Of a DNA stretch of 64,000 nucleotides, positions 12,541 through 64,000 are shown piece after piece. The notes under the pieces are model-generated. The model worked only from the letters and a program-made list of their open reading frames with translations, ran no database searches and was not told the DNA's origin. This DNA is from Stylophora pistillata. Taxonomy: Eukaryota. The stretch is from contig NW_019217960.1 of NCBI RefSeq assembly GCF_002571385.2, positions 130,308-194,307 on the forward strand, given 5' to 3'. A program made the translations under genes and the position numbers. Position 1 is the stretch's first letter. Each line of letters begins with the position of its first letter.

Positions 12541-14062
12541 TGCACATGTCGTGCTAGAGAACGCTCAAAACTAAATAAGCGATTTTTTTCTTATTTCGTA
12601 TCACATGCGGCAGGATAAAAAGCCATCTTGATTTGGTTTTAGTATTTTGCACTGGCACTGGGATTGTTATAAGCGACGTCTTTTAAAGTCATCGTCACTT
12701 TCATTATTCTGAAAGCTATTACTAAATGCTACTCATTTTTTTCTTTATGGTCTTACCTGAACTTTTTTCTCTCTTGCTATATTCAGTATATTCAGTATGA
12801 TACCATTCAACTTCCTGGCCCAATGTTTTTCAATAAAATGCTTTTTGGTTGAAAAACCGCAAAGCAATACTCTTGATTTGCTAAGTTTTACATAGTTCGA
12901 CAAACTAAATGCAAATTATCAATAACTTCATGTTGCAAAGTCATCAATAAACGAAAAAAACCTATATTTTTACCTGTGGATGATAAAAATCAACGAAATT
13001 TTCCTCAGAAGTAAAATTAAATTGAATGAGTTGGATCATTTCATTTCACTTGTTAGGATCACTCTGAAATTGTTATCTTTTCTTTTCACAATTTAGCAAA
13101 CTCGTCAAATTGCTCATTGCACATCACAGGAAATTATGCGCGACTATCATTGCATTATAGTAAATAATAGATCTCCAAGAGTAATCTCTTGTTTATGGCA
13201 TGGACTTACAAATCACCACATAAGTCTCAAACGCTGTCACTTACTAGTGTGAAGTCATTTTTATCACAAAAATTTCAAGCTTCATCTCACCAATTCTATA
13301 CCAAAGCATAGCTACCACCATACGCAACACAAAGTACTGTTGTGCGTGCCAATTATGACAACAGTTCCATCCGGGAAGTCACATCCACATTTCCATTTGC
13401 CTGATTTGATAAATGCAACACTTACTGCATTGGCCATATGGATAACATGGGTCGGAGACCTGCCTTGTTACCTACCTTAAAAGCGATGTTACTGGGAGAA
13501 AATGATAATTCAATCATTCTCTCTCGATGCTACTTCAAACCATCTGCACTCAGGGGCGTAGCAAGTCATTTTTGGCTTGTACGCCCGTTCCATACCTTGT
13601 AAGTATAGTGCAGCAGGGAAAGGTAGGGAAAGTCAAGTATTTCCGAGAAAATTTTGTAAGCCCGGGCTTACTGGCTTAGAGGGAACTACGCGCCTGGCGA
13701 TTTGTCGAACTCATGCAATTGCTGGTTCCATACGTGACGTCATTTCTGGGCTGAAAAAGAGAAGGTAACGTTGACTTGATCAGGTTGTCATAGAAGACGC
13801 ATCTACTATTCCAAAAGTCGCCATATACTGGAGTCCACTCGGGAAAGGAGCTAGAGCAAAACCGAGAAAGACCTCGAAGTGGTAGCGATGGGCAGTGTTA
13901 GCCCAAGGACCCGATAGCGACTGAGAGAGTGAGTGTGTCGCCCCGTTTTAATGTTATTAAGTAGTAGAGACAAGGACATTATGGTGAACTAATTCTGGGG
14001 GAGCGGAGCTCTCTTCGATGCAAATCAGTTACTTTTGTTTCAAGAAACAAATATAACTTGTA

Positions 14063-14240
14063 AATAAAGGCTGATAGTTTCTAGAGAAACTGTTTGGGGC
14101 TGCGTCGGTGGGGGTAACGAAATAATCTGAATATATCAACAAAGTTGAAATGGTAAATTGGCCACCGTTACGATTATAAAAGCTCACGTTTCGAGCCTTA
14201 GCCCTTGGTCGGAGCGAATAGTCGAATTGTGGGATGTGTG
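14063..14240 (-). mobile_element. Repeat with degenerate minimal hammerhead motif (Penelope-associated type)
   Basis: Minus strand CTCCGACCAAGGGCTAAGGCTCGAAACGTGAG. Flanks are homologous to 29411-29585, 46358-46530 and the fragment at ~4662-4712. Confidence 0.65.
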
Positions 14241-14340
14241 TGCTTTTAAAGGCAGAAAAAGGAGTTACGTCATTGGTGGGAACATGGCAACGAGAAAAAC
14301 AGGAATAAATTAATGGAATGGAAAGCGTTCGTTGATCGAC

Positions 14341-22200: not shown

Positions 22201-23468
22201 AGCTTACGATTGCGGTTGATCAAGTTATTTAGAAAATAAAAGCAAATATTTTCTGAAAGCGATTTATATCGTCTAAATAGAACGAGATATTTCCAAACGA
22301 AAAGCAGATGGCACAGCCCTGACTTCGTCGATTTTAGATCTCTCTTTAAAAAGAAGGCAATCTCAACCGCTTTTAGCGGTTCGCTGCTGAGTTCTTGGCC
22401 TTACTCTCGTAGCGGTATTGAACTGTAATTTTAAGAGTGTTTTGACGGCAAAACCAGGGCATTCAAACTGAACAAACAGAACTTGATTAGGTCGACTGAA
22501 CTCACGGATTATGCTTTCTTTTTTGGGATCTTGGGTTCCATTCCCGTCTTTGGAGCCGCAGAATACAATGAGTGCGGGCTTATATACAGGGTTAGTCTAT
22601 GAACCAGTAACTTTGCGCGACCTATACCGCAGGTTATGGTTTTTCAGTTTTTTCGAGCGAAAGGCAAGCCATTTGCCGCAGTAAATGTAAGTCGGCATTC
22701 AATATAACTGGATCAATCCAAGATTTGTTTTTCTTTCACTCTTTTCTTCTTAAACAATGCATAACCATGAACCACTGAGCACGCAAACCGTAAGAACCAA
22801 CGTTTAACCACGCATCTTTTTCGAAAGATCGAGCCTGAGATATATTTCTTGGAATTGTTTAATTCTAAGGGAGGAGAAAATGCATCCTCTCTTGCCAATT
22901 CGATAACAACTGCTCCGATATTTTCCGATAGCTGCAGTTTCTTTCGTAAAATGCACTTTTAAAAATAAAAATTGTGGTATCTGTCCTTTTTAGGAGTCTT
23001 AATTATTACTATATTTTTTTATCTTTTTTCAATCTATTTATCGTATTATTTGAATTGCGTTCGAGCCCTTTTTCATACTCAGCCTAAGGACTCTAGGTGT
23101 ATGAGTCTCCACCAGTTCGATATTTGAGTTGTTTCTGCCCCGTACTACAGTACTTTCACCTTTAAACTGAAACTTAACCTAAAATGCTAAGTTTACTTCT
23201 AAAGGCATTTTAACTCGGTGAAGGAAGCAAGAGTTTGGTCGCAAGAACGGTTGCGGACAGAGGAACTAGCGATGGAATTAAAGAAAAATATTTCAGCCTG
23301 CACTCTGAATTCTAAGATCCATAGAACTTGCTGCTTTAATAACAACAAAGAAGTCACGCATCACGCTCAGACAACATTTTCCGTCTTAAATATCATTAAT
23401 GTCGATATCGATGCCAGTCAAAACAACTGAAATGGAACTCCAAATTAAACCGCTTCAGCACACATCAC

Positions 23469-23918
23469 ATGATCAGCCCTTAAGCTCAACTGAAGTAACC
23501 CATGCAACAAATACTCGGTTACAGTTTCTACTGTCATAGCCCTTTAGCTTTGGTAAAGCAACTTCAAGGTATGAATTTCAACTGAAACTTGCTTTAAACT
23601 GCACTGGATGAAAAGTTCTACATCAATTCGAACTCACATATCATGACTTCCCGTGACACATCATTCATGTTGATCTCTATAACTCATCAGGAACTCGAAA
23701 TACATGTTGCATGATAAGCCCTTGGGCTTAATTGAAGCAACCCAAGCAGCGAATGATCGGTTACAGTTTGTACTGTCACAGCCTTTTAGCCTTGGTATAT
23801 CGACTTCAAGGTATGAATTTCATCTAAATTTTGCTCAAACTGCACTAAATGAAGACTTCGAATCGATTCGGGCTCGAACTTACATTTCATGACTTCCCGT
23901 AGCGCATTCATGTTGACT
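23469..23918. repeat. Diverged tandem duplication (~240-bp unit x2)
   Basis: 23469-23673 and 23712-23918 share CGGTTACAGTTT, ACTTCAAGGTATGAATTTCA, AAACTGCACT and TCATGACTTCCCGT. Confidence 0.85.
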
Positions 23919-24143: not shown

Positions 24144-24425
24144 ACCGCCTTCCGGTTTGCTCAATTGGTTAGAGGGACGGACTGTCTTGTGCGGGAGGTC
24201 GAGGGTTCGAGCCCAGGCCGGACCAATACTCATAAGTGAGGAGAATTTGCTATCTTTTTAAAATCAAGAAATGGATAAATATTCTAGTCTTCTCGAATAA
24301 GGACGAATAAACCGTAGGCCCCGTCTCCTGCAGGGTTAGGGGTAGGAGACGTTAATTTGGGAATTGGCCCTGAAAAGCCCCATGGGGAGTGGTCAATTAA
24401 CCTATGTATGTATGTATGTATGTAT
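24144..24425 (+). mobile_element. tRNA-derived SINE with (TATG)n tail, possibly Deu/Nin-domain type
   Basis: A box TTGCTCAATTGG, B box GGTTCGAGCCC, core ATAAGGACGAATAAACCGTAGGCCCCGTC, 3' stem GCCCCATGGGG, tail (TATG)5. Confidence 0.8.
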
Positions 24426-25088: not shown

Positions 25089-25380
25089 TACTCCTATATG
25101 TTGATATATTATTTTGATTGTTGTCTAGTACCATAACAACATTAATTACACTCCAGCATACAAAAATAAACACAAGTAGACTTATTCGTTACCGACAATG
25201 ATGAAATTGCGTGACGACAGTAACAATGGCAATATGGCAGTCCCCTAAACAGATAACTCCAGATGTGCGATGTTGAAAGCCCGAGGTCACGCAGATATGC
25301 GTCTAGTTTACTAGAACAAAATGTTAAAAAAGGCGCATTTAAAGAGAAGCGCTAAGACATACCAACTCTTACAACATTCT

Positions 25381-25678
25381 ATATGAATGATGCACGATCC
25401 TCGCAGTAGAGAGCGCTATTTATGCAATAGCGAAAATCAGACCTGAAAAAAATCAGGCCTGTACGGGATTCGAACCACTGACCTCTGCGATAATAGTGCA
25501 GCGCTCTACAAATTGAGCTAACAAGCCAACTGGGAGCAGGCCGTTAAGTTGATTCGTAATAAACCCGTGATGATAAATCAGATACGGTGAATATATGAAG
25601 TTCTCTACTGCGAGGATCGTGCATCATTCGTATCTATAACCGCAGTTCAAAATATATGAACTTCAAATATTCACCGTA
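25381..25678. mobile_element. tRNA-containing fold-back element, copy B (short right arm)
   Basis: Left arm is homologous to copy A with the tRNA-like unit on the - strand. 25602-25633 is the reverse complement of the element start and is followed by the TAACCGCAGTTCA tail. Confidence 0.9.
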
Positions 25679-26658
25679 ACATTTTATATGTTTATCAGTT
25701 GAGATAATTGCGATTATTATCCGCTCGATTGAGGCGATTGCGTAGTTCGCTATAGCGTGTCACGACATCGGCCTTCTGGCAATACAATAGAATAGAAAAT
25801 CCAGTTAATACATGCGAAAAGGTTTCTTGTTTTTGCTTTGTGATTTTGCTTACCACATATGCATGGTTTGGCATGACTTTAAGAATCACGAGCTTGAAGA
25901 AAGCAAGTATTCCTGTTCCTGCATTAGCTTAAGTGTGACACAGCCAACAATGTGACCTAATATAATCTTGTTGTCACAAAACAGGACGTAATGCTACCTT
26001 TTTACGAAAATATCTATCATTCAGCTTAAAGAACTTTGAAAGTACGTGTGTTAAGGACCGTAATCATGGAGTTGTTGCGACCAGCAAAGGTTCCACATGA
26101 TGTAACCTGTACTTTTATCTACGAACCTGTACGATGTACTTTTATCGACGAACTACTTTGATGTATAGCCTTTTTAACATATATTTTCGACAATTGTGAT
26201 TGCGAAAAAACTTCCTTCATTCTGGGCCTTTTAGTTTTCCAAATGTATCATATGCTAGATCCTCTTAAAGGACCACAGGATTTCTATTTGTGATTACCAA
26301 TGAATTAATAGTAAAATAATTATAAGTAAATTGACTATCGAACCATTAGGCTAAATTGACCATCATTTGAAAATTAGATGTCTGATCGACTTAAAATGTA
26401 TCTGAGAGGTGACTAAGTGACGCGAATATGGTATCTCAAAGATTGAATGATTCTACATAAACGAAGCAGAACCCCCTTACTGGGTGACATAGCAATCATC
26501 ATTTTTTTTCGAAAGGGTGCATTTCATCATGGAATAGTCACTTTTGGGTCACTCCCAAAGGTAAAGTATTAGTAGCCTGAACTCTCTTGTAAATGTCTCA
26601 ACTATATTTGAATCGTTTCTTCACCTTCCTTTGTTGTTGTTGTCCTGTACCGCAGATA

Positions 26659-29600
26659 ATGGCGTCTCGCCTGAGCGACGGTGGTCTGCCGCCAATGTAC
26701 GATGAGACAGTGGGCATACAAAGAGAAGGCACATCTTCAAAGAAAACCACTCTTGTTGTCCTATGTATCTTATTTGTGGAACTTTGTGAACGTCTGACAT
26801 TTTACGGTTTAACAGCAAATCTGGTGTTTTACTGTAGAGATGTTCTCAAGCTTTCTTCACCATTACCAAGCACAGTTGCGTTAGCATTTCAAGGTAAGAT
26901 GTCTTCTCAGAATCTACGGCCATTAAAGTGCTTTTCAATTGAGTGTGAAAAAAGAAAGCCCGAGTAAACGCAAAGCCTAATAGGAGAAAGGAAACTAATC
27001 AAAACAAGGATGAACGTCACTCGCTCGAAAACCTGCCCCTCTTTATAAGCCCTACGAAAACCTTACTACGTATCCTCGATTTCCTTCTAATATAACTTGC
27101 GTGCTCTTAAAGAAGTTGACGGCAAAGAGAGGTAGATAGGATATAAGAGGATATAGGATATGGTGTTATTTTTCCCTAATCACTTTTGAGAGAGACATAA
27201 TTCTTATGTCTCTTATGTTATTTACTTCCCGTCAGGGACATGCTTCTTCACTCCTGTTATAGGCGGTTGGCTGGCTGACACCGTAACTGGGAGATACAAC
27301 GTTATATATGGAAGTTCGTTACTCTACATAGTCGGCACCGCTCTTCTTACAGCTACCACTTATAACTACCCAACAGCCTACGCTTTGAGCATTCCAGTTA
27401 AGGGGGCATTCCTAGCTGTCTCGCTTATCCTAATTGCCATAGCAACTGGAGGAATTAAGGCCAATGTGTCCCCGCTAGGAGCAGATCAAGTCAAAGACGA
27501 AGGACAAGAAATGGTCCAGAAATTTTTTGACTGGTTTTACTGGTTTATACAGGTTGGGTCTCTGATCGCTTTCACGGCAGTTGTGTATGTCCAACAGCAA
27601 GTGTCTTTTTTCTACGGCTACTTGCTAACTGCCTTGTCTATGATTTTAGCAACCTTGCTGCTGTTGTTTGGAAGAAACCACTACATAGTTCATTCACCAA
27701 AAGGAAGCTTCCTGACTGACACCCTACGAATTATTGGTGTTGGTATCAAAAACAAACTCCGCTGCAAGAGTTATCATATTCAAAGTCACTGGCTCGATGG
27801 AGCTAAAGATGATATGGGAGGACATTTTTCAGAGGAAGTGGTAGAAGCTGTTAAGTCGTTGGTTCGCCTGGTCCCAATATTCTTAACATTTATCTTCTAC
27901 TGGACAATCTTTGGGCAGGTGAGCAAACAAATACCAATCTTAATATAGATCCTGGACTGTTGAAGCCACAAGTGGCATCCTACATGAAACGTGAGGACCA
28001 TAAGCGTACCGATCTAACCCGTAAACGTCGCTTCACCTCAGGCGCCAGTCGATGGACCATTTACAATGTGACAAAATCCCGAACGAGATAGAACTTTTCC
28101 CATTTATGTTAGCGTGGTACACAGACAGATGCACCATCCATAATAAACTATTATTCAGTTCTTAAATGTACTTCAAAGTGAAATTTATAGACTATAGTAA
28201 CGATAAAAAGTTCCTATCTTGGAAATTTGAGCTTACGAGCTCTTTGAATATTTTTTATGGTTGTGTTCGATTCAAGAAAACATAAAGGTTGCATTGTTTA
28301 GTGTCTTTAAACATGATGGAAAGAGCCGATATGGTTGTTGTAGTTGTTGTTTTGTTATCGTTTTGCCAATGCATGTTTTTTTTCCTCGTAATCTGCCGAG
28401 GAAAACCCACAGATCACATAGCTCCAGTTTCATGGAACGTACCTTCACAACAGGAAATGCTGTTTTATTTTGTTTGTTTGTTTTCCAGTTGTTGGGTTTG
28501 TTTTTTATTTTTCAGATTCATTTTTTCTTCTTTCAGCTCTTCAATTATTCTGTTGTTATCAATGTTTCCAAAACACCCCTCATTTCAATTTTGTGCTTAT
28601 TTTTCCATTTCTCTCAGGGTCTCACCACGTATCTATTGCAAGGCTCTTATATGAAGTTGGAAATCACCGATAAGTTCACATTTCCCGCGGCGTCACTAAG
28701 TGTATTCGAAAATGCGTCTTTATTACTTTTGATTCCCCTTATTGATCGAGTTGTCTACCCAGGCCTCCGACGTCTTGGCTTCAACTTCACTCCTCTGCGC
28801 AGAATTGGCGTTGGATTGATTTTTGCTGCTGGTTCTGTGGCCTTGGCAGGAATCATCGAAATTGTGCGAAAACGTTATGGAAGGGTCAAACAGAATGTTT
28901 TCAATACAACCATTGATGCATCGACTATGAGCGTGTTTTATCAAGTGCCACAATATATACTCCAAGGAGTAAGTGAAGCTCTGGTGTCTGTAACAGGTAA
29001 ATAGCAATGCTGCTGTTGGGAGGACGAAAATATTGGGAAATTTATAATCCTACCACTTTCCTTCCAGGTAATTTGGCGAGTAAGTGCCTGTAATTGTAAC
29101 GATGGCGCACAAAATGAAAGGGCTTTTACCACATAGGGTCTTTCAAGTGTACATCACAATGGTTTCTAACCCATAACACCTGTCAAAGTTGAGCTTCCAT
29201 ATGCATTTAGAGTACCGCTATGCCACTCCATATTTAGACAAGCCGTTGTCTCGTAAATCGTGCCTATTAAATAGATGTTGTTGCTTTAGCTTGATTTCCA
29301 AAGATTATTTTCAAAATGCTTAACCTATAGACCCTTACTCATTACCATCCTTTTCTGGTTTGATATCTCCGTCGTTGGGCAGATCATAATTCCAAGGCGC
29401 ATTTATATTTAGGATAAACGAGTCGGTGATGTAAATTTGCCACCGTTAAGGGTTTCTTGGCTGATATTTGGAGCGTTAGCCCTTCGTTATTCACTCTGAC
29501 GAAGAGCTAACGCTCGAACCGTCAGTTTAACAGTGGCAAATTATTTACATCACCAGCTCAATAACTTGATAAAACCAAATTACTACGTTTAAGGTAGTTT

Positions 29601-35100: not shown

Positions 35101-35494
35101 CAGTAAGGAATGGTTTGCATTGGACTCTCTTACCCTGAGTTGTTTTTTATTGCCCACTTATTTGTAATTTTTGTGCCGTTTGCTTCGGCATCGCAAGTAT
35201 TTCTACGAGGTTGTTCACCTTTCAACTCTGCAAATCGGGAACCGGATTTATATTTCAAAAGATTTTCCTCTGCTTTTTCTTCCATCTCGATTTAACAAAT
35301 GGTAAACACCACAGCCTACGCTATGAATGTACGCTATTGCGTAATGGATGCACGTCGGAGGTTGTTTAGCACGAAAGAAGCGTAAGAGTCGCGAGTCTCT
35401 AGCTTTTTTTCGTGCTTAGCAAACCTCTAAAGCGCACCCTTAACTCAATGGTGTAGGCTGTGGTGTTTACTATTTGTTTTATAACACAACAGTG

Positions 35495-35538
<44 letters not shown>

Positions 35539-38040
35539 GAATATTTATACAGGACAGCCCTTCAGTGCAGGAGCACTGTTATCAATGGGGTCTTGTCTAA
35601 ATAACATAACATAAGGATAAAAACTAGAATAAGATAAGAATGACAACGCACCTAATTAAATGCCCTATGCAAAAAATTGATCTAACGACTCCGTAAATGG
35701 TACCCTACTGCTAATTTGCTTGATTTTTAAAGTAAAAAATTAAAAGCTGATGCTCCTAAAAAATAAAAAATTTTCCCGAGCAAAGTCAAGTCTCACTTTC
35801 GGCAGAGCAACGGTGGTCCCTCTGTTCCTCGTATTAAAATCGTGGGTTAACAATTTAAAATATTCTTTGAAGGACTACAAACATCGCCTTTTAGGCAATC
35901 AAAAACAAATAAACAAGCCTTACATACACTGTAGCAAAAGCCTACATACACTGTAGCAAAATAATTTCTTTTTTTATTTAGCACCGAAATCTTAGGTGAC
36001 CAGAAGAAAAAAAGTCCGCGGAAACTAGTCTTTTCCATTTGCCCACGTCAGCAGCGTACACCCATGGGCATATGGTAGGCACTTAATTGACCAATCAGAG
36101 TGTGCGCTTTGCTTTGGTTATGTTCTAACAGTTCTTCTTCAAACATTTCTCCAAGTATACTGTTCTTAAAAGTCGGAAGTTTGTTACCATCCATATCTTA
36201 GAAATTTGCAACTTTTTTACGGGATAAGTTCTTTCTACGACTAGCGGAGATTTCCGAGCGTTGCGTCACATGATACGTCAATTTTACCATCTGTAGATAG
36301 TCCTCGTCCACTGAAAACGCGAGGATTTCTACAGTTATTGTAAAAGAAAAGAAACAACAACAATTGAGTAGCGCTTGCTTTTCAAACATCTCATTGTTTA
36401 AAAGTTACTACAAAAACCCCTTTCTCGCTTTGGTGGGTTCATGACTAGCATCTATGAGCCATCCGATCATCCCTAGCCATTAGAGATGTAATTATAGACC
36501 TTAAGATTTGAGGACGTCACCTGTCTAGGACGCCACCGGAAGTTCGTTTTCACCTAAAAATGACATTGCGCGTGTCTATACGGCCAACAGGGTTTTTATA
36601 GTTTTGGTATGTATTTAACATGTAAGAAAGTATTCTTAAATAAAAATTGGGTTCTGACGGGTCTTCGCCCTAAAATCGAGCTTTAAACTTCCCACTTTGG
36701 CCACGCCCATTGAAGGTGGCCGTGAGTCGGGGCAAAAAAGAGATTGGGTTCTGAATGGGTCGTGACGTCAAGTCAGGAACGCGCCAAATCCCGCTAGTGG
36801 TTCATTTCACTGTTTTTTTTGTTTTTTTTTCAGTAAAGTAAAGAGTTTTCGGCGACATAAATATGGCTGATAGATGTGTTGTAAAAGTACTGCGTTTGTC
36901 AAGCACTGAGTAACAACGCGACGCTCAAGACGCTCCTGGAGTGACGTCACTCATCACCAATCTTCCCTTACATGGTCAACTTCATTAGGCGTGGCCGAAG
37001 CGGGAACTTTAAAGCTCGATTTTAGGGTGAAGAGGCGTCAGAATCAAATTTCTTTTTGAGAATACTCTTTCACAGGATAAAGAGATACCAAAACAATAAA
37101 AACCCTGTTGGCCGTATAGACTCTTTAAATACTTTCGTTTCTCTCTCAATGTGGATCTTTTCTACTCTGCATACTGCTAGTCATCATGTCTCTAGTCATC
37201 CTCAGACCTTTGAGGTCGACTGGTTACATGATGTCGCTGTTTAGAGCGACTAGTTCAAAGAGTCCATTACGATTTCTACAAACTCAGTAATTCTTACTTC
37301 GTACAATTCACTTTATACTCGTTCTCATCAATCAACTTTTTAAACGCCTACTGAGACAGAATCTCAAAATTTCATCTATCGGGGAAGAATCAGAATAGAA
37401 ATATTTAAACTGTTGTACATCAGATAAGCTTACCTAAAAAGTAAAAGCTTTCGGTTAGACCTCTAGCTTTGATCACTTATTAGTAACCCCGCTAAAGCAG
37501 CTAGGTTGCCGGACGTGTGAGTCCATGTAGGGTCCCTGAATGCTTTTACTTTTTAGGCAAGCTTATCCTGTGTACAAAAGTTTAAATATTTTTCTTCCCT
37601 ACAGAGAGATGTTATAGGGGACAGCTTACTCCAAAGCTTCTCACTTTTCCAAATCACATTTTGCAGGTCTCGAGTTTGCCTATGCTCAATCTCCACCAGA
37701 ATTGCGTGGCTTAGTAATGGGTGTGTGTTGGGCAATGGTTGGCGTGGGTTACTACGTGGCGAGCTTGCTGGTGTCAATCGTCAAATATGCTTCACACGCC
37801 ACTTGGTATCCTGATAACCTCAATAAAGGCACACTTGAAAACTACATGTTCCTATTAGCTGGGCTTATGTTAATCGACTTGGTGGTTTTCCTGTATTTAG
37901 CAGTGAGGTATCGCTATGTTGACCATGGAGAAGGGCCTGGAAATGATGGCCACCGCGCCCCCGGACGTGCCAGAGTTGTATCACTCGCGACAGCTGTACC
38001 CGTGAACAATGACGTCTACCCTCAGTTACTAGTTCGGTGA
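32194..38040 (+). CDS. POT/PTR2 family (SLC15A4-like) transporter, paralog 2
   Basis: Exons 32194-32455, 33300-33985, 34451-34832, 37667-38040 with the same intron positions as paralog 1. Motifs TLFERLSYYG, GGWLGDTTAGRY, GGVKAN..GADQ, GLEFAYAQSP. Confidence 0.92.
32573..32784. mobile_element. piggyBac-type MITE with TTAA target duplication
   Basis: TTAA-CCCTTTGGCTCCCA ... TGGGAGTTAAAGGG-TTAA. Confidence 0.85.
35292..36128. mobile_element. Split-inverted-repeat element (hairpin related to the 4030 element) with nested (AAT)n retro-tail
   Basis: Hairpin 35292-35480 shares AGCACGAAAGAAGCGTAAGAGT with ~4093. IR TTATAACACAAC / GGTTATGTTCTAA. CCAATCAG at 36091. (AAT)14 plus retro 3' end at 35494-35596. 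Confidence 0.65.
36574..37128. mobile_element. MITE with ~150-bp terminal inverted repeats
   Basis: GTCTATACGGCCAACAGGGTTTTTAT..CCCTAAAATCGAGCTTTAAA is mirrored at ~36972-37121. The right end is followed by TCTTTAA. Confidence 0.85.
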
Positions 38041-55500: not shown

Positions 55501-56097
55501 GGTTTAGTCACAGGGTTAAAAAATGAAGAAAATTGAAGGATTCTGTGTAGAACCCTGTAATGAGCTTTTTCAGTCAAAAATCCAATTAACATTTTAATAA
55601 CTTACCCCATCTCACAGCGAAACATTTTAACAACTCACCCCATCCCACAGCGAAATAAAACACGATGGGTACAGTGTTTTTCTCGTTGAACAGCGGCTTG
55701 AGTGTGGAGTAGTAGTACATTGCTTCCATCAGTAACCAAGACAGAGCTGCCAGCTCAAAAAAGTGCACGAAAGGATTGACCACGTCACATGTTTTGGGAT
55801 TGGCGAAATACTATAAGGAGAGTTGCAACGACATTATTTGGTAAAAAGTATGTCGGCATGCTCGGAAAACGAAAAAACGCATCAGTGCGAATGGGGCCTT
55901 GGGGTCCACAAGTCATTAAACGAAGGAAGTTCAGTCGTCGCCAGTCATTATTTGTCAACGTGGGGCGATGGGAGGAGGAGAATTTTTGGGAGGATTACAG
56001 TTTTCAGTGGACCATTTGTAGCCAACAGAGGATGAAGAGAGGACTATAGAAAGTTGATTGCCAATGAGGGGAATACTTAACAATTATTCCACTCGCA

Positions 56098-56137
<40 letters not shown>

Positions 56138-56301
56138 AGCGCTGAGTTGGCTATAATCATCTCATGTCCAACAAGCACGAGTGGAATAATTGTTTTATTT
56201 AAAACGCCCCCAAGATATTAGACAAATCTTACCAAATCTTAAATTTTTTCGCTCCCTTTTAATTTTAAGCTGACGTGTATGCTTACCATATTTGTAGTTT
56301 G

Positions 56302-56335
<34 letters not shown>

Positions 56336-59300
56336 TAATAAAAAGTCTTGAATTGCATTATACAATGATCCAGTTTTTAATCATTCAAATTAAACCTTAA
56401 GGGGTTCAGATGATTTTATCATGACGTTAACAAACACCTCTAAACCCTTTCCTTCGAGGGAGTAATGATCGGTTTCTTAGCGCGGAGAGGATTGGAGTCA
56501 AATTGTGCTCACCGAGTTATGGCCGGTAGATAAACCAATGAAGAAAACCAGCTGACTGAGCAAAAGAGACACGTCAATGTTAAGAGCAATGCGCATGTTG
56601 TCCCTCTGATGATAGCTGAAGTAAAGAATTGCATATCCAATGAGCAGTGAAGCAATGTAAGAATGAAATCACCGTCTATTTTACACAAGTTTACTTTTTA
56701 ATCTTCCTTTCTTTGGTTTTGCTTTTTCTGTTCGGATCATTAAGTTTTCCCCTTGATTATGAGCATATTTCTTGACGAGGCAAATCCAAAATTCTGAAGT
56801 GATAGCTTTAGTGCTATTTATTTCTGCTAGTTAAGGTTGCAAAGCATTTTATGCTTGTATTTAAGGGCCTGTATCAGTTTCCATATCCAATATCGTAGGT
56901 ATTGGATAAGACCTTTGTTAAGACTGGGCGGTAATTTAAAAGAAGAAATGAAACTCTTCTTGACCCTTATTGAGTTTCCTATAAGCTGGTCACGCAACAC
57001 AGTATTTGGTGCTTTTTCCATGTGATAATGGTATTAATGCTTTCTGAAAAAACAGCAGTGTCACGAAAAACTTTCTTACTTGATAACAATGGCGACAATA
57101 GCGCAGATCAGCAAAGCAAGCAAGGAGAATGATCCTAATACAGTAGCCACAGTAACGACCATTTTGCGATCCGCGTCATCCACCTAAGAAGATGAATACA
57201 TGACAAAAAAATTACTTCGCAGCTATTAGCACAGCTTTCAAATTATCGCTTCACACTGATGCAAAAATAAAACCAAATATCCACTGTCCCTCCGGCAATT
57301 CAATTATGAAAACAACAACAATCCCCGAAATGCAGAATCCCAGTGGAGTTTTAAAGAAACCTCCCCTCTTTTAACAAATAGCGCTCAAAATGTTGCGAAT
57401 GTACTTCTCAATGAAAATTTGCCTCACTATACGATTTGCTTTTTTTTTTATTGTTTTCCAAGAAGGTTCTAGCAGTCACTTCGAATTTCCCGCGGCCGCC
57501 ATCTTGAATAGTGCGCAATGCACTCTGGAACGATGACTGGTAATGGTTGCTCGGAGCTCGCGGTGTAGTTTTTCCCTTTTGTTGATGCTATATTGCCGTC
57601 GTTTAAAGAAAGTTTTGGTGAATATGTCACAGATCCTCCCCATTAAAAAAAACACATTTGGAAAGTTTCGAGCGCTATTTATAAAAGAGTCGAGGTTCGA
57701 AATTCCCTTTCCGTTGAAAACAAGGTTGAAGGTTCACCATGGCACTTTCTTCCATGTCCCATAACTTGATTGCCGTAATCGTGCAACCGAACATCATACT
57801 GATTGCACTAATTCATCGCATAAATGCAACTTAATGCAAGCGGTATGGTTCACAGGAGAAGTGCACCAAACTGTCGAATTGCGATAAAACGTGTATCTCA
57901 GAACAGACGTTCAAGTTGTCCCTTTGCTTTTAAACGAGAATAGCGCGCGTGGTCTTTTTCAGCATTGCAGGAGGTTTAAAAGTGGCTCTAGTTGGGATCA
58001 ATGACCAGTTTTACCAGTTTAACAGTTACCTTGAAGATTCGAACAGCCCAAGTGACGGTACGATCAAACCCTCTTTACATTGTATTAAACCACTAACCTT
58101 CTCATTTACACTCATTACCAGCGCGAATGTTGAAAAATGCGTGCATTCACAGACGGTTTCTGATTTGCTGGTTTTTCCAACTTTACAACCATCATTGGAC
58201 CACGCTTTGAGACTAAAATAAAGAAGGTGAAATATTTTTATGTCAAAGGTTCAAGACTCAAAACTCTTCAGCACCACATTATGTTATAAACTTCGACTTT
58301 AGTTTTCCTTTAGTAACAAGCTATGGCGGAAACATTGACGTTTCAGCTAACAGTCATCTTTCATAATGGTGGAGAAAAATCGTTTTCGACTGCCGCATTA
58401 CGACTAGGACAATATATCTTTTTTTAATTCTTTCCCACCCCTACTCACTGGATAACTTGTATGCCTTAGAGAGGATCCGCCGTCAATTGACTGATAACGT
58501 TTTTCTTCGCATATAAAAGGCAACAACAGCGTTCATTTGAGCGAACTCTCATAGATTACGACATGAAATATTACGTTATAAAAAGCACTCATTCCTCTTA
58601 CCTTCTATTCCAGTAAACGCATTTTGGATCAAAATGATCTTCAGTGATCTGTAGAAAATAAAGATTTAGGTCGAGTTCCATAAAATGTATGAAGTTAACC
58701 TCAACGAAATGTTCATAAATCACAGGATCTATTTGATCCTACCAACCATACCGTTCTGATTGGGACTTTCTCTTGTAGTGTCCTAATTCTTACTTTGGCG
58801 CGATTTATTTAAGGAAAATGAAAAACTCAGTTAAACGACATAAAGAAAAAAAGCTGACATGTTATTTAGAAGACGTCCTTAAGCAATAAATGCTGGCATG
58901 CAGTGTCTGGGTGGCGAGCAGGCGCTGGCCAAAATCACTCCTGCCCGGCAGGCTCGGTAAATGCTAGAAGTGCATGACCACAGTTAGGGTAGAGTATATT
59001 AGTATATACTAAAACAGTGGATAGCGTTGAAGGCGCGCTCTGATTGGCTAGTCAAACTCCGAATATCCTTTGCTATTTACCTCCGAGCAACTCGGGAAAA
59101 AATGGCGCCCCGTTTGCATCCGTGACAAGCGAAGAAATCACTCAAATTAACGACGGTAGTGTATATTGTCTCACTGTTTTAGTATATACTAAAACAACTA
59201 TTCACCGAAGTGGAGGTGGTTAGTGGTGGATATTTACCGAGCTGCGAAGCGGCTCGGTAAATATCCACCACTAACCACCTCCACTTCGGTGAATAGTTGT

Positions 59301-62046
59301 TAACTGTTCTTGTAAATCCTTTACCACACATTGACGTATCGATGTTTTATTGAAAGAGCTTACATGAAGATGTTGCAGCGTGATCAAGACTGGTTTTGTC
59401 ATTGGTCCACGCAGCATTCTACTTTTGTCTTTATGAAGAAATTTCGCGGACAGCAAGTTGCTGTTGATTCGTCTCTTTGGAACTTTCTTTCGGGTCATGA
59501 GTTTGTCACCAATCACGTACAGTTCAGACATAGCTGAACCTGGAATATGGCTACAAACCGAAAATAGATGACTTTATTTAATGGAGCTTCTTCACGATAT
59601 CTAAATTTGGTGTTAAGGAGGGGCTAGGGGAGTTGGGAGTGACGTACAAAACTTACATGTATTCAACTAAATATTAGCGCGATAAAATGAAAAAAAAAAG
59701 AAAAAATTCCAAGAATCAAGAAGAAACAAGGATACAGCTTGTAATGGAGAAAATGAAAACAGATTGCCAATACAAATCAAACTTTTAAAATTAAAGCATT
59801 TTCCATTTCATAAGGAAGTAGAACGTAGCAGCAACAAAAGGCGATGGAACCCAGTTTAACCGATCATATAGATTATCAATCCAATGCTCAACAAGCCTGT
59901 GTAACAAAAAAAGTAAGCTTACTTGTCCTGCCAAGCCATCATGTCTTTATCCAGATATGATCCTCCCATGACATCTGGTAAAATGGCGACAGAATACATG
60001 ACATCCCCTGTACAGAAAATAAGATCTATTAGAGCATGTGAAATGCAATGCCTGAATTTCGGTAGTCCGGTCAGAAATTGCCTTTGTTGGAACATGCTTT
60101 GTACTGTTCCATGTAAATATTTCTTCAGACTCACCGAAGAAAAGTAAAGAAAATGTAATATCTTATTGCTCATGCACAAATTTTGGTCTTTTGCCAATCT
60201 TTCGTGGGAAACCAATTCGTCACGTAGAATAACTGACGCAAAATAATTCTCAAAGTAAAATTCTGTTGAAGATTGCAGTAGCTCCAAAGTTATGAGCCCA
60301 CAAAGAGGAGAAGAACCTGGAATCTTGAAAAGTGGCCGAGGCAACCGGATTTCTCGCTCAGAAAACTTGGTTGGGAAAACATTGTTTAAGAGTCTAGATC
60401 TGTTTTTAATGCTCTTTGGTTGAGTGAATTGATCAAAATAGAATAACATAATGCTTTTAATATATTTAAATAACACTGTTTTCGCCGTCCCTTTCTCTTC
60501 TAGCGTTTTTACCGGATAGAGGAAGCTCTTCCAATGGGAAAGCAACCGAATCACCCATAGCCTTCCACTTGTCAGTGAATTCTGGGTGAGAGTAGCTGGG
60601 AAATATGAGTGCAGGTTTCTCGGTGCTGTTTTTCTTTTCTCCACAGTTAAAAAGACCGACCTCCATAGCTGAAAGCAAAAAATAAATCAATTAATTATTA
60701 TTTTGTGCTGGTAGATATATCATGGACGCATTTCCTTTGCTTATCCTTTACAGCTGGCTCGTTCGAAATTAAATGAAGGGCATCTCAAATAGCTTCCTCA
60801 ATACAACAGCATGATACGACTGCCACGCTGTTGTTGAAAAACAATCGATGATCACATGATATCAAATAACCAATTTGATAGGTCAGTTCACACATGAACG
60901 GAGAAACAGCTTCAACAGTAGGGTGGTTACAGGCTCAGTATTTTATCGCACTCCTCTTCTCGCATGTGACTCGCGCTTCTGGAGGCTCCAACACGCTCTT
61001 GCTCGTTGTCTTGAGCGTAAATAAAAAAACAAAAGGTCCGCAATGCGTATTTTAAACCGCTCCTTTACTCCTTTACGGAACTAGATCAACAGTGATGACA
61101 TATAGCACTGTCATTAAGAGAATTTTCTACTTGTTAAGTATTAAGAAGTATATCTAGATTTTTTTCTCAAGGTCTCAGGGGCTGAGATCCTTACCCATAT
61201 TATCCGTGATGATTACTTCAGTCTTGTTTACATCATTAGCCTTTATTGTCTTTGCGAGGGACATTCCCAGGTCCATGACATGTTCTGGGACGTCCATGTT
61301 TGGAAAAGAAAAATTTTCTGGCTTGTCCTAAAAAAAGCAGAAAGGGGAGAGTCGCAAAATCCTTCCCTTCCAAATTAATTGGATGATTTTACGAATGTAG
61401 CTCCCATTGCTTGCCTATATTCGTACGTAAGCATCCGAGAAATCTACCATGCGCTCATTAAAGGAGAACTGTCCTATTCGTACTAGCACATTTTTTGTTA
61501 CCGTAAATTGTCCTTGTTGGACGCTCTAAGCTCGAAACAGTCGGTAAGTTTTGTTGTGTTTCATGTGCATTGTAACTTCGCTTGCTAAAGTGCACTTTCT
61601 GTCCGCAGAAAACCTACCTTATTGGTTCGATTATGGAAACATTTGTGAAAATAAATGGTTGAGTTTTTGAATTCAAAGCAAGATCTTATGTGTTTCTGCG
61701 AAATACGTAATAACGAAGTTGTTGTTGTAGAAATGAACGGCAGCTATGTATTGATCCTTTGAACTTTTAAAATTTTCTTGTGATATTTTAAGCGAATCTT
61801 AAACTTAAATAACGAGGAGTTGGCCAAAGCATGGCGGGCATCTCCCAATAGTGTCAGTAAAGTTAAAAGAAGATTTATTCCTATAGGGAATAGATTATTT
61901 CATGCAGCTAGCAACGCCAGTTAATGTTTAAGAAATGTATGAAAGCGATCCTCGCAGTAATGAACACTTCTTAAGTAGTAATGAAAATAAGGTCTGAAGA
62001 AAATTCAGACCTCTGCGATACCGGTGCAGTGCTCTACCAACTGAGC

Positions 62047-62079
<33 letters not shown>

Positions 62080-64000
62080 ATTCAATTCCCGTTGAGGCCA
62101 GAATTTTTTTCAGGCCCTATTTTCACTAATGCTTAAGTAGTTTTCATTACTGCGAGGATCGCTTTCATACATTTCTTAAATAACCGCGGTAGAGAAATAT
62201 GATTTTCATATATTCAAATTCATTAGTTGATATTTAATTAGTTAGGGTCAGTCTACATACGGAACTCTTAGTTATGAGGGCTTAAATCCATGCAGACCAG
62301 GTTTCGGTCCTCTAATTTTCCAGCTTCAGATCTGAAACGTTTTCCTACCCACTTCCCTCCCGTGGTAGTGTGTTTGTGTAGGGGTATCATCGGGTTCACG
62401 AGGCAGTTTTGCCTTCACCTTTGCTAGAAATAAATCACATTTCTAGACAATGTAATTTAGTTGAGGTGTTAGCAAATAAACGGCGCTAGGGTTGTGGCCA
62501 AAACGTAGCAAAATCTTGATCTCATTTACATAACAAACAGAGCTAAGCCTTGGCAATGCGCTCTATTAGTTAAAATTACTTTTTCATTGGTGTCACTCTC
62601 CAAATATAGCTTTGAAACAAACAGGAGAGTGGTAAAAATAATCATTCTTTGTTTCAGCTGGTTTTTGATCAATTAGTTCGTTATTTATTCAAAAGTAAGA
62701 GCACGTTACCTTCATACAGTTAGAAACGGCCATCATCTGATCCTAAAAGAAGAATTAAATTAAAAAAAAATCCAGTTTTATTTACGTTCCAAACAAAGAT
62801 GGGTTTGGATGGCAGATCTGTACGTGCCCGCTTTTTATGCAAATCAGTCCTTCCCCGATCGCAGTTTCGGTTAAATCATATCAAACCGGAAGTGACACTC
62901 ACATCTTCACTGTAGCCTAAATTAAAAGCCTCTGTGCTTCTCGACTGTGTAAGGTTTTAAGGTTCTATGGTAATGGGTTTCTCGAGTCTAGCTTCAACAG
63001 AACATATAATGTAATTTGAACAGAGTCTCTTTCTGGAGTGGAAATGTCTTCAACAGTGTTTTAGCAGGTTTGGTGCGCGCTCTTAAATATCATTACGAAC
63101 CCTATATATCTTTTAAAGTTACACGTACACACAAACGAAGCACCGACCTATTTCTCCCTTCCTGAGTTCTTAATGCTAATTTGTCTCAAAAAAAATTCTC
63201 CTTTTCATTCTCATCAAAAATTTCCCGCCCGCCTTATGTAAGAAATCTTGGAAACCTATGCACGTGTTTGTTAACCTACCTTTACGCACTTTGGATCCTG
63301 ACATACGGGGTTATTCCAGTTGACATTCATACAGCCCAGCTTGGGGGCAGCTGAAATTTTAGTGGTATGGTAATTAATTAAACAAAATAACGTCTCAGTT
63401 GTGCGTATAATTACTGGTAAATTTTTCACGGTTGACTACGACGCATGTAACTGTTACAAAATTAATAGAGGATCCCCAAGTGCACAGGTAGAGTTAAGAT
63501 AAGATAAGATAAAAACTTTATTAACGGGTCGGGTAGTTCTAGCTTACATTTACGTAAACTATTTGTGGACACCTTACTAATAGTGAATTAAAAGTTAAGA
63601 ATTATGATTAAAATCCTAAATCCTATAAGTCCCTCACTGTAGGATGCTTAATTAACTAGAGGTTTCAATTTACGTCAGTTCAGTTCTCTAGGTTGTGAAC
63701 GATATATTCCAGTTGTAACACTGCATTCGATGCAAGATGTCACACTGATAACATTTATTCCATCTACGGAAAAACAAGCTGACTTTTACCTCCCAAAATA
63801 TTAAACTAAAATACACTCGTGAACATAGCTATGTAATTGAGTAGATGGAGAATTAAACTCGACTTTAAAGATAAACAAAATTGAATTTACACAGAGCGTA
63901 GAGAAGTACCTGTTGCAGGTGCATTTACAGTCTGCGAAGTTTGCTGCGAGTCAGCGGTTGCCGACGGTTGAATATTATTTCCAGATATATTGCCAAATAT
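52514..64000 (-). CDS. Adhesion GPCR (GAIN/GPS + 7TM); 5' end outside window, last exon uncertain
   Basis: Exons approx. 64000-63910, 63350-63280, 62742-62710, 61327-61195, 60668-60513, 60007-59923, 59550-59364, 58648-58602, 58212-58098, 57183-57080, 56615-56513, 55810-55639, 55184-55109, 54747-54681, 54226-54141, 54021-53892, 53143-53102, 52633-. GPS PKCVYW..WSNDGC..CECTHFSTFALVM. 7TM HFFELAALSWLLMEA, VGWGVP, CWMS, TWLFG, TFQGLLVLLFYC. Confidence 0.92.
56077..56381. mobile_element. Split-inverted-repeat element
   Basis: Hairpin 56077-56196 (TTAACAATTATTCCACTCG / CGAGTGGAATAATTGTTTT, apex GCGCGTAGCGC). Short second IR ATTTAAAAC / GTTTTTAAT. Confidence 0.7.
58999..59303. mobile_element. Split-inverted-repeat element (reverse orientation, near-perfect)
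   Basis: IR TTAGTATATACTAAAACAGTG / CACTGTTTTAGTATATACTAA, CTGATTGG at 59040, and a ~50-bp-arm hairpin 59193-59303 with apex GCGAAGC. Confidence 0.88.
61929..62226. mobile_element. tRNA-containing fold-back element, copy C (centre deleted)
   Basis: TTAAGAAATGTATGAAAGCGATCCTCGCAGTAATGAA is mirrored at ~62143-62178. Two partial tRNA-like units are fused at the centre, followed by a TAACCGCGG tail. Confidence 0.88.

Follow-up and report, generated by a model that had tools for sequence, protein, structure and literature searches.

A non-coding 247-bp tandem unit with a tRNA-like segment, probably mobilised by Penelope-like elements in a coral genome

Copy B, an inverted element in the coral Stylophora pistillata, is a single insertion of a 247-bp unit made up of a tRNA-like gene, a T-run and hairpins. 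We consider it very probable that this non-coding tandem unit was moved in trans by a Penelope-like element (PLE), whose reverse transcriptase-endonuclease copied it from a multimeric RNA. The insertion layout is already known for PLEs. A tRNA-carrying, hammerhead-free PLE passenger found no description in the literature searched; Repbase, Dfam, supplementary repeat libraries and subscription papers may contain the family, and Repbase or Dfam may list the unit as a SINE or an unknown repeat.

Copy B, the 247-bp unit and its arrays

Throughout, the window is the whole 64,000-nt stretch of DNA that was analysed, and unit coordinates (u) follow a natural array monomer (L020:1330-1576) in which the tRNA-like gene starts at u1. 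On the tRNA-sense strand, the tRNA-like gene (u1-73) is followed by a T7 run inside a hairpin, by three further predicted hairpins (u96-183) and by a leader that extends to u247 and into the next tRNA. The features of copies A, B and C in the window are as follows.

25373..25385, no strand: left target-site duplication of copy B, 13 bp with 1 mismatch; its last bases match the element end too
25381..25603, minus strand: left arm of copy B, u172-u247 and then u1-u147, 98% identical to the natural array monomer; its outer end is the short fixed end S (u144-147), its inner end a 5' truncation at u172
25455..25527, minus strand: tRNA-like gene of copy B, u1-u73, called by ARAGORN and matched by the Rfam tRNA model at 46.3 bits, and followed by the T7 run
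25583..25603, minus strand: first junction word, u172-u192, the left arm's inner end
25602..25603, no strand: head-to-head inversion point, where the arms overlap by 2 nt
25602..25678, plus strand: right arm of copy B, u116-u192; its outer end is the long fixed end T
25633..25678, plus strand: tail of copy B, 46 nt, u147-u192, lying between the two fixed 3' ends
25658-25678, plus strand: second junction word, the last 21 nt of the tail
25678..25690, no strand: right target-site duplication of copy B, which pairs with 25373-25385
2250..2753, no strand: copy A (A subfamily), with a 14-bp duplication (2250-2263 / 2740-2753) in an (ATT)n tract
2264-2479 and 2480-2739: left arm of copy A, ending at S, and right arm, ending at T, with a near-perfect fold-back at the centre
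2333-2405 (minus strand) and 2553-2625 (plus strand): tRNA-like genes of copy A
about 61927..62216, no strand: copy C, a more ancient relative of about 76% identity that shares the inverted layout and whose right arm ends near T

A preliminary description of this DNA had proposed that copy B preserves a junction joining the end of its left arm to its start. The junction is real: the 21-nt word TACGGTGAATATATGAAGTTC (window 25583-25603) shares 20/21 bases with the reverse complement of 25658-25678, whereas shuffling the 104-bp region 200 times gave best identities of 11-15 of 21 for inverted 21-mers. A 46-nt inverted match also links 25381-25426 with 25588-25633 (31/32 in a second alignment), and, when copy B is read on the minus strand, the right arm and tail lead into the junction word and then into the left arm's outer-end sequence. 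The labels given to the left arm fared differently from the junction itself. On account of the PLE insertion signature of the copies, the supposed start is the fixed 3' end S and the supposed end is a random 5' truncation point; that known signature, comprising fixed ends, a tail, an inversion and a target duplication, had been overlooked. Jointly, the arms of copy B cover the entire 247-nt unit and overlap at u172-u192, the outer limit of the left arm falling at about u141-147, and the tRNA-like gene bears motifs that we take to be A-box-like and B-box-like.

Copy A, as had been claimed, exhibits the same relation, in that its tail (u176-u190), once reverse-complemented, is similar to its centre (inner end u175/176). 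The two passes over u176-u190 differ by a segregating variant (a 2-nt indel and 1 substitution), and the final letters of the tail merge into the target-site duplication. Given its near-perfect fold-back and the variants shared by its arms, copy A may have formed by self-priming instead. Rfam miRNA family matches on copy A lie below the gathering score.

A multimeric template for copy B is supported by the genome itself, in which the head-to-tail arrays sought by the preliminary description do occur. With copy B as the query against the 398-Mb genome, arrays with a 247-bp period and 97-99% identity were found among the 40 of 1096 candidates that were scored; copy A has arrays of its own, 99-100% identical, and altogether 130 complete units were cut out from 38 loci. 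N gaps often border the arrays, leaving their lengths and inner sequence uncertain. The join of u247 to u1 also occurs in contigs of all four public runs searched (8, 5, 8 and 20 contigs), three of which are RNA libraries in which DNA carry-over is possible, and these contigs do not allow strand, ends or circularity to be read; the run labels include coral metagenome. Pieces crossing the T end are likewise found in contigs of 4/4 independent runs, and loose ends at u146 were counted in 15, 7, 20 and 51 contigs. The family is abundant (254-2575 first-look candidates per query) and very young, with copies 99-100% identical.

The A and B subfamilies are identical across the tRNA part (73/73), while the remainder agrees at 146/174 positions (28 differences; p 4e-5). 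From sequence comparison, this pattern suggests a maintained polymerase III promoter, and recombination between subfamilies could also cause it. RNA polymerase III is expected to terminate at a T7 run placed immediately behind the tRNA-like gene; a maintained promoter would require this run to be read through. In two insertions (L138:2230-3749 and L139:856-1316), an A-type array changes to B-like sequence within a stretch common to both subfamilies, for which template switching, a mixed source array or misassembly may account. A C-type copy with the same flanks lies inside another dispersed repeat at L207, L216, L217, L219 and L220 (about 1330-1900).

With regard to folding, pairing in the four hairpins that lie 3' of the tRNA amounts to 90% across 18 copies, and 3/24 pairs have changed on both sides. 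Their covariation score exceeds that of 500/500 shuffles, and a pair-count measure was reached by 192 of 500; a conserved four-hairpin structure is thus weakly supported by the modelling. Covariation of the cloverleaf is borderline (28 of 500 shuffles). Partial complementarity exists between the tRNA and the leader upstream of it (L020:1283-1404, u200-u66); on this ground, the leader may be an old inverted copy of the tRNA. A 47-nt upstream fold-back onto the tRNA (-40 versus -18 kcal/mol for the cloverleaf) was not adopted: compared with shuffled sequences its duplex is borderline (26 and 52 of 500), and no covariation was detected in it (491 of 500 shuffles as high).

Several neighbouring features were recorded in the window. 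A POT/PTR2 peptide-transporter gene lies about 1 kb downstream of copy B (26659 onward), with a Pfam PF00854 match on the exon at 27238-27492. The gene is duplicated about 5.6-8 kb downstream, where exon-sized direct repeats (D1-D4, D8 and D13) indicate, at the sequence level, tandem POT/PTR2 paralogues. Nine further palindromic elements, unrelated to the tRNA unit (36574-37121, 46113-46362, 37393-37597, 59193-59301, 4054-4197, 4940-5079, 40078-40178, 56079-56194 and 35294-35478), may likewise be PLE passengers built of two arms. At about 24150-24225, a decayed tRNA-like sequence displays promoter-box-like motifs by eye and received no call from ARAGORN or Rfam. Finally, two 126-bp direct copies, 242 bp apart and 83% identical (D7, 23468-23835), constitute a different tandem repeat of similar period.

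Insertion anatomy and a Penelope-like mechanism

About 76 distinct places were mapped, and 50 two-arm insertions were tabulated by hand after the exclusion of places that were one-armed, cut by N gaps or duplicated. All loci are top-scoring matches, as opposed to a random sample, the B set having been chosen with a two-arm query and the A set with a single-arm query. In these 50 insertions the arms stand head to head, forming an adjacent inverted 5'-truncated copy, with the tRNA-sense 3' ends outward. The outer ends fall at S (u144-147) or T (u190-195), about 46 nt apart, where ends at u178-198 were counted as T because a near-end variant shortens the alignments. Forty-one insertions combine S with T, 3 are T+T, 1 is S+S and 5 have one end hidden. 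One end of each kind is therefore present in 41/45 insertions with both ends visible (binomial p about 1e-8) and in 20/20 of the A subfamily, so that the 46-nt tail occurs at one end only. Both 3' ends lie within unique sequence.

The inner ends are scattered, only 1/100 lying within 5 nt of the tRNA start, and form no pile-up at any RNA 5' end; those of T arms do not stop at S. More than half of the arms (63/100) run >10 nt past the tRNA start and 47/100 are longer than one unit, a proportion that the search biases upward. Arm lengths range from 27 to >2000 bp with unequal ends, and at the join the arms either overlap by 0-9 nt or are separated by short fillers. Of 44 insertions tested, 33 carry target duplications of 10-15 bp, with 32/44 above the score cut-off and 12/44 failing it, compared with 53/1892 mismatched flank pairs above the same cut-off. 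Many arms longer than one unit are flanked by clean target duplications.

Minority variants are common to the arms of one insertion more often than to arms of different insertions (A, 29% versus 2%; B, 12% versus 2%), and 0/1000 permutations were as high in either subfamily. Arms of one insertion therefore often derive from one template or source array, and arm-to-arm conversion or assembly mixing could also account for the sharing. At overlapping arm positions, 122 variants were unshared versus 23 shared, and in two insertions, L022 and L138, the arms belong to different variants or subfamilies. In another instance, a T+T insertion without duplication (L006:1430-1820) is bordered by host flanks that are inverted copies of each other, which suggests a fold-back that took in target DNA.

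These properties correspond to four of the six features used here to recognise a PLE passenger, namely the inverted 5'-truncated copy, the two fixed 3' ends, tandem or partial-tandem copies, and target-site duplication within about 8-15 bp. In the passages cited, copies of PLEs form partial tandems, next to which lies an inverted copy truncated at its 5' side, and one end bears a tail of 30-40 bp (PMC8557442); duplications measure 8-10 bp, and the junction of the inversion contains palindromes (PMC3846280). For an anole PLE, the portion of the source cited presents the tail as the span between two internal reverse-transcription start sites, reports that both target strands are cut and extended, and predicts a dimer (PMC11167929). 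Against the PLE reading, the 46-nt tail of the unit exceeds the published 30-40 nt.

We propose the following course of events. Transcription of the arrays would cross unit boundaries, probably starting from the tRNA A and B boxes and reading through the T-run, or else driven by promoters outside. Both target strands would then be nicked, about 12 bp apart, by a dimeric PLE protein, and each nick would prime reverse transcription at one internal RNA start site, either S near u146 or T near u193. The two cDNAs would extend inward, stop at random points and become joined, often over a few shared bases. Since the units of the template would follow one another head to tail, a cDNA extending beyond the tRNA start would enter the tail of the previous unit, which is the junction observed in copy B.

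GIY-YIG PLEs are present in the same genome, most clusters of which carry hammerhead-like 3' repeats. They provide an internal control: in one young C-terminal GIY-YIG family the 3' ends fall into two classes, about 92 nt apart, and the autonomous elements L060 and L042 are head-to-head S+T insertions with 10-11 bp duplications. From 1590 candidates in the partner search, 150 were scored, 90 matched and 70 loci were compared. In none of these 70 GIY-YIG loci (13 clusters) was a PLE reading frame found joined to the 3' part of the unit, and unit matches there were neighbouring insertions only. In the window itself, an autonomous PLE family (L182, L184, L191 and L194) is represented by copies of its 3' repeat at 14051-14337, 29431-29543 and 46351-46528 with 75-92% identity, and this repeat bears a minimal hammerhead-like motif.

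The later steps of PLE insertion are described as still unvalidated in a published account (PMC11167929). As the family is short, very young and abundant, it records the start point of each cDNA at many loci, and the two-nick, two-start-site model becomes directly testable through the expectation of one short and one tailed end per insertion. In addition, each unit scores as a tRNA gene and will inflate tRNA and miRNA-hairpin predictions in coral genomes.

Form of the template and alternative origins

The preliminary description had left open a head-to-tail multimer or a circle, and between the two we moderately favour a linear multimer over a monomer circle. It is nevertheless possible, if rather less probable, that the same PLE mechanism used a circular monomer RNA with rolling-circle reverse transcription, as proposed for retrozymes. 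The unit size of 247 nt matches that of coral retrozymes (220-245 nt in the section cited of PMC7229834). In predicted folds, the sense strand is strongly structured (z -4.5 when linear), with circular-fold z values of -4.8 and -6.9 versus -4.4 and -3.2 for the antisense, and the lack of an inner-end pile-up at any RNA 5' end would also suit a circle. Among A-type arms with at least 2 complete units, 11/20 are homogeneous for the scored variant, compared with 4.1 expected (0/10000 permutations), but 9/20 mix variant units; neither count is decisive, since array interiors beside N gaps may be assembler consensus, and both are subject to possible assembler collapse and query bias. The difference between the two passes of copy A over u176-u190 also argues against a circle.

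A further difficulty for a circle is that neither a hammerhead nor another Rfam ribozyme was found on either strand, leaving no known mechanism for cutting and closing. The hammerhead core motif with a downstream GAAA, scanned with a general consensus, was absent from both strands of natural A and B monomers even with 1 mismatch. An Rfam search of four loci at E values up to 10 returned no ribozyme and only the tRNA and weak unrelated matches. Twister-like and HDV-like readings of the hairpins were rejected by eye against consensus features. Rfam did score a hammerhead elsewhere in the window, a type I match at 43972-44024 (minus strand; 29.7 bits against a gathering score of 34; E 0.0028). 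This match sits in a segment of ~260 bp flanked by TA runs (43940-44260), which is probably a true retrozyme monomer.

A more elaborate version, which we regard as doubtful, would make the unit a ribozyme-free counterpart of retrozymes: a tRNA-promoter-driven 247-nt RNA would be cleaved and closed into a circle, either by the host's tRNA-processing enzymes or by an unrecognised ribozyme within its conserved hairpins, and then rolling-circle copied by a dimeric Penelope enzyme from the two fixed start sites. Two mismatches in the T-stem of A and B weaken the idea of host tRNA processing, and the weak support for tRNA-like processing counts against the circle in general. If true, this version would represent a tRNA-SINE-like PLE partner and a new circular-RNA route in corals.

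Origins outside the PLE mechanism fare worse. Canonical tRNA SINEs (SINE2) possess a tRNA 5' head with A and B boxes, an A-rich or simple-repeat 3' tail and target duplications. A LINE-driven tRNA SINE, with inversions from twin priming and arrays from later unequal crossing-over, is very unlikely here. The unit does resemble SINE2 in its tRNA-derived segment with conserved promoter-like boxes and in its target duplications, whose 10-15 bp fit target-primed insertion in general. However, its tRNA lies away from the 5' end, an A-rich or simple-repeat tail is lacking, and its insertions are circularly permuted, inverted and multimeric. The arms, moreover, share unit coordinates and terminate at either of two fixed internal sites, the inner ends of T arms do not stop at S, and the unit boundary is already crossed in single, short insertions, copy B among them.

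We assign an equally slight chance to a DNA-level element, whether a satellite or extrachromosomal circle reinserted by repair or an element of MITE or Helitron type. The arrays are indeed present as DNA and copy A forms an almost perfect palindrome, but unequal arms with random inner ends are unlike terminal inverted repeats, and the equal repeats, uniform length and short fixed duplication of MITEs are not seen. Repair capture, in turn, would not yield two fixed ends, one of each, plus ~12-bp duplications, and reverse transcriptase-encoding PLEs of the same genome show the same layout. Lastly, it is scarcely credible that the 21-nt match reflects a short direct repeat inside a linear element, the case that the preliminary description had itself raised as a refutation, or that the arrays are assembly artefacts: N gaps do often border arrays of uncertain length and inner sequence, but the junction word (u172-u192) occurs once per 247-nt unit and so is no internal repeat of a linear consensus, and the boundary-crossing contigs of all four runs and the long arms between clean target duplications speak against an artefact.

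Comparison with retrozymes, Schistosoma elements and PLEs

Metazoan non-LTR retrozymes are built, like the unit, of tandem repeats, with monomers of 150-450 bp and coral examples of 220-245 bp in the excerpts cited (PMC7229834; bioRxiv 10.64898/2026.07.22.740005). The same excerpts describe a self-paired predicted fold, a proposed mobilisation by PLEs and larger target duplications, all of which the unit resembles, and its sequence is also present in RNA libraries, where it is known from assembled contigs. In contrast to retrozymes, for which the type I hammerhead is defining in these excerpts, the unit was found to have no hammerhead and is thus by definition not a retrozyme. The unit also carries a tRNA-like segment, whereas the word 'tRNA' has 0 occurrences in the available retrozyme text (bioRxiv 10.64898/2026.07.22.740005).

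The Schistosoma elements Sm-alpha and Sj-alpha share with the unit a tRNA-derived pol III-type promoter in tandem units, and in the portions cited an upstream unit transcribes the next one (PMC6765202, PMC2770079). According to these portions, Sm-alpha frees monomers with a hammerhead, and none was found in the coral unit. Two-end, head-to-head insertions of PLE type are absent from the descriptions compared for Sm-alpha and Sj-alpha. Therefore, despite its tRNA-like segment, the hammerhead-free unit is not of Sm-alpha type.

PLEs and the non-autonomous MRC1/Chlamys elements provide the remaining comparison (PMC8557442, PMC3846280, PMC11167929, in the parts cited). Unlike them, the unit has no reading frame and no hammerhead, contains an internal tRNA-like segment and bears a 46-nt tail. 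No sequence was found in common between its 3' ends and those of the 70 PLE loci tested. In their cited descriptions, however, these elements have in common with the unit partial tandems, an inverted 5'-truncated copy, a tail at one end, two internal 3' ends, target duplications and fold-back junctions, and the non-autonomous Chlamys elements, like the unit, form multicopy head-to-tail insertions.
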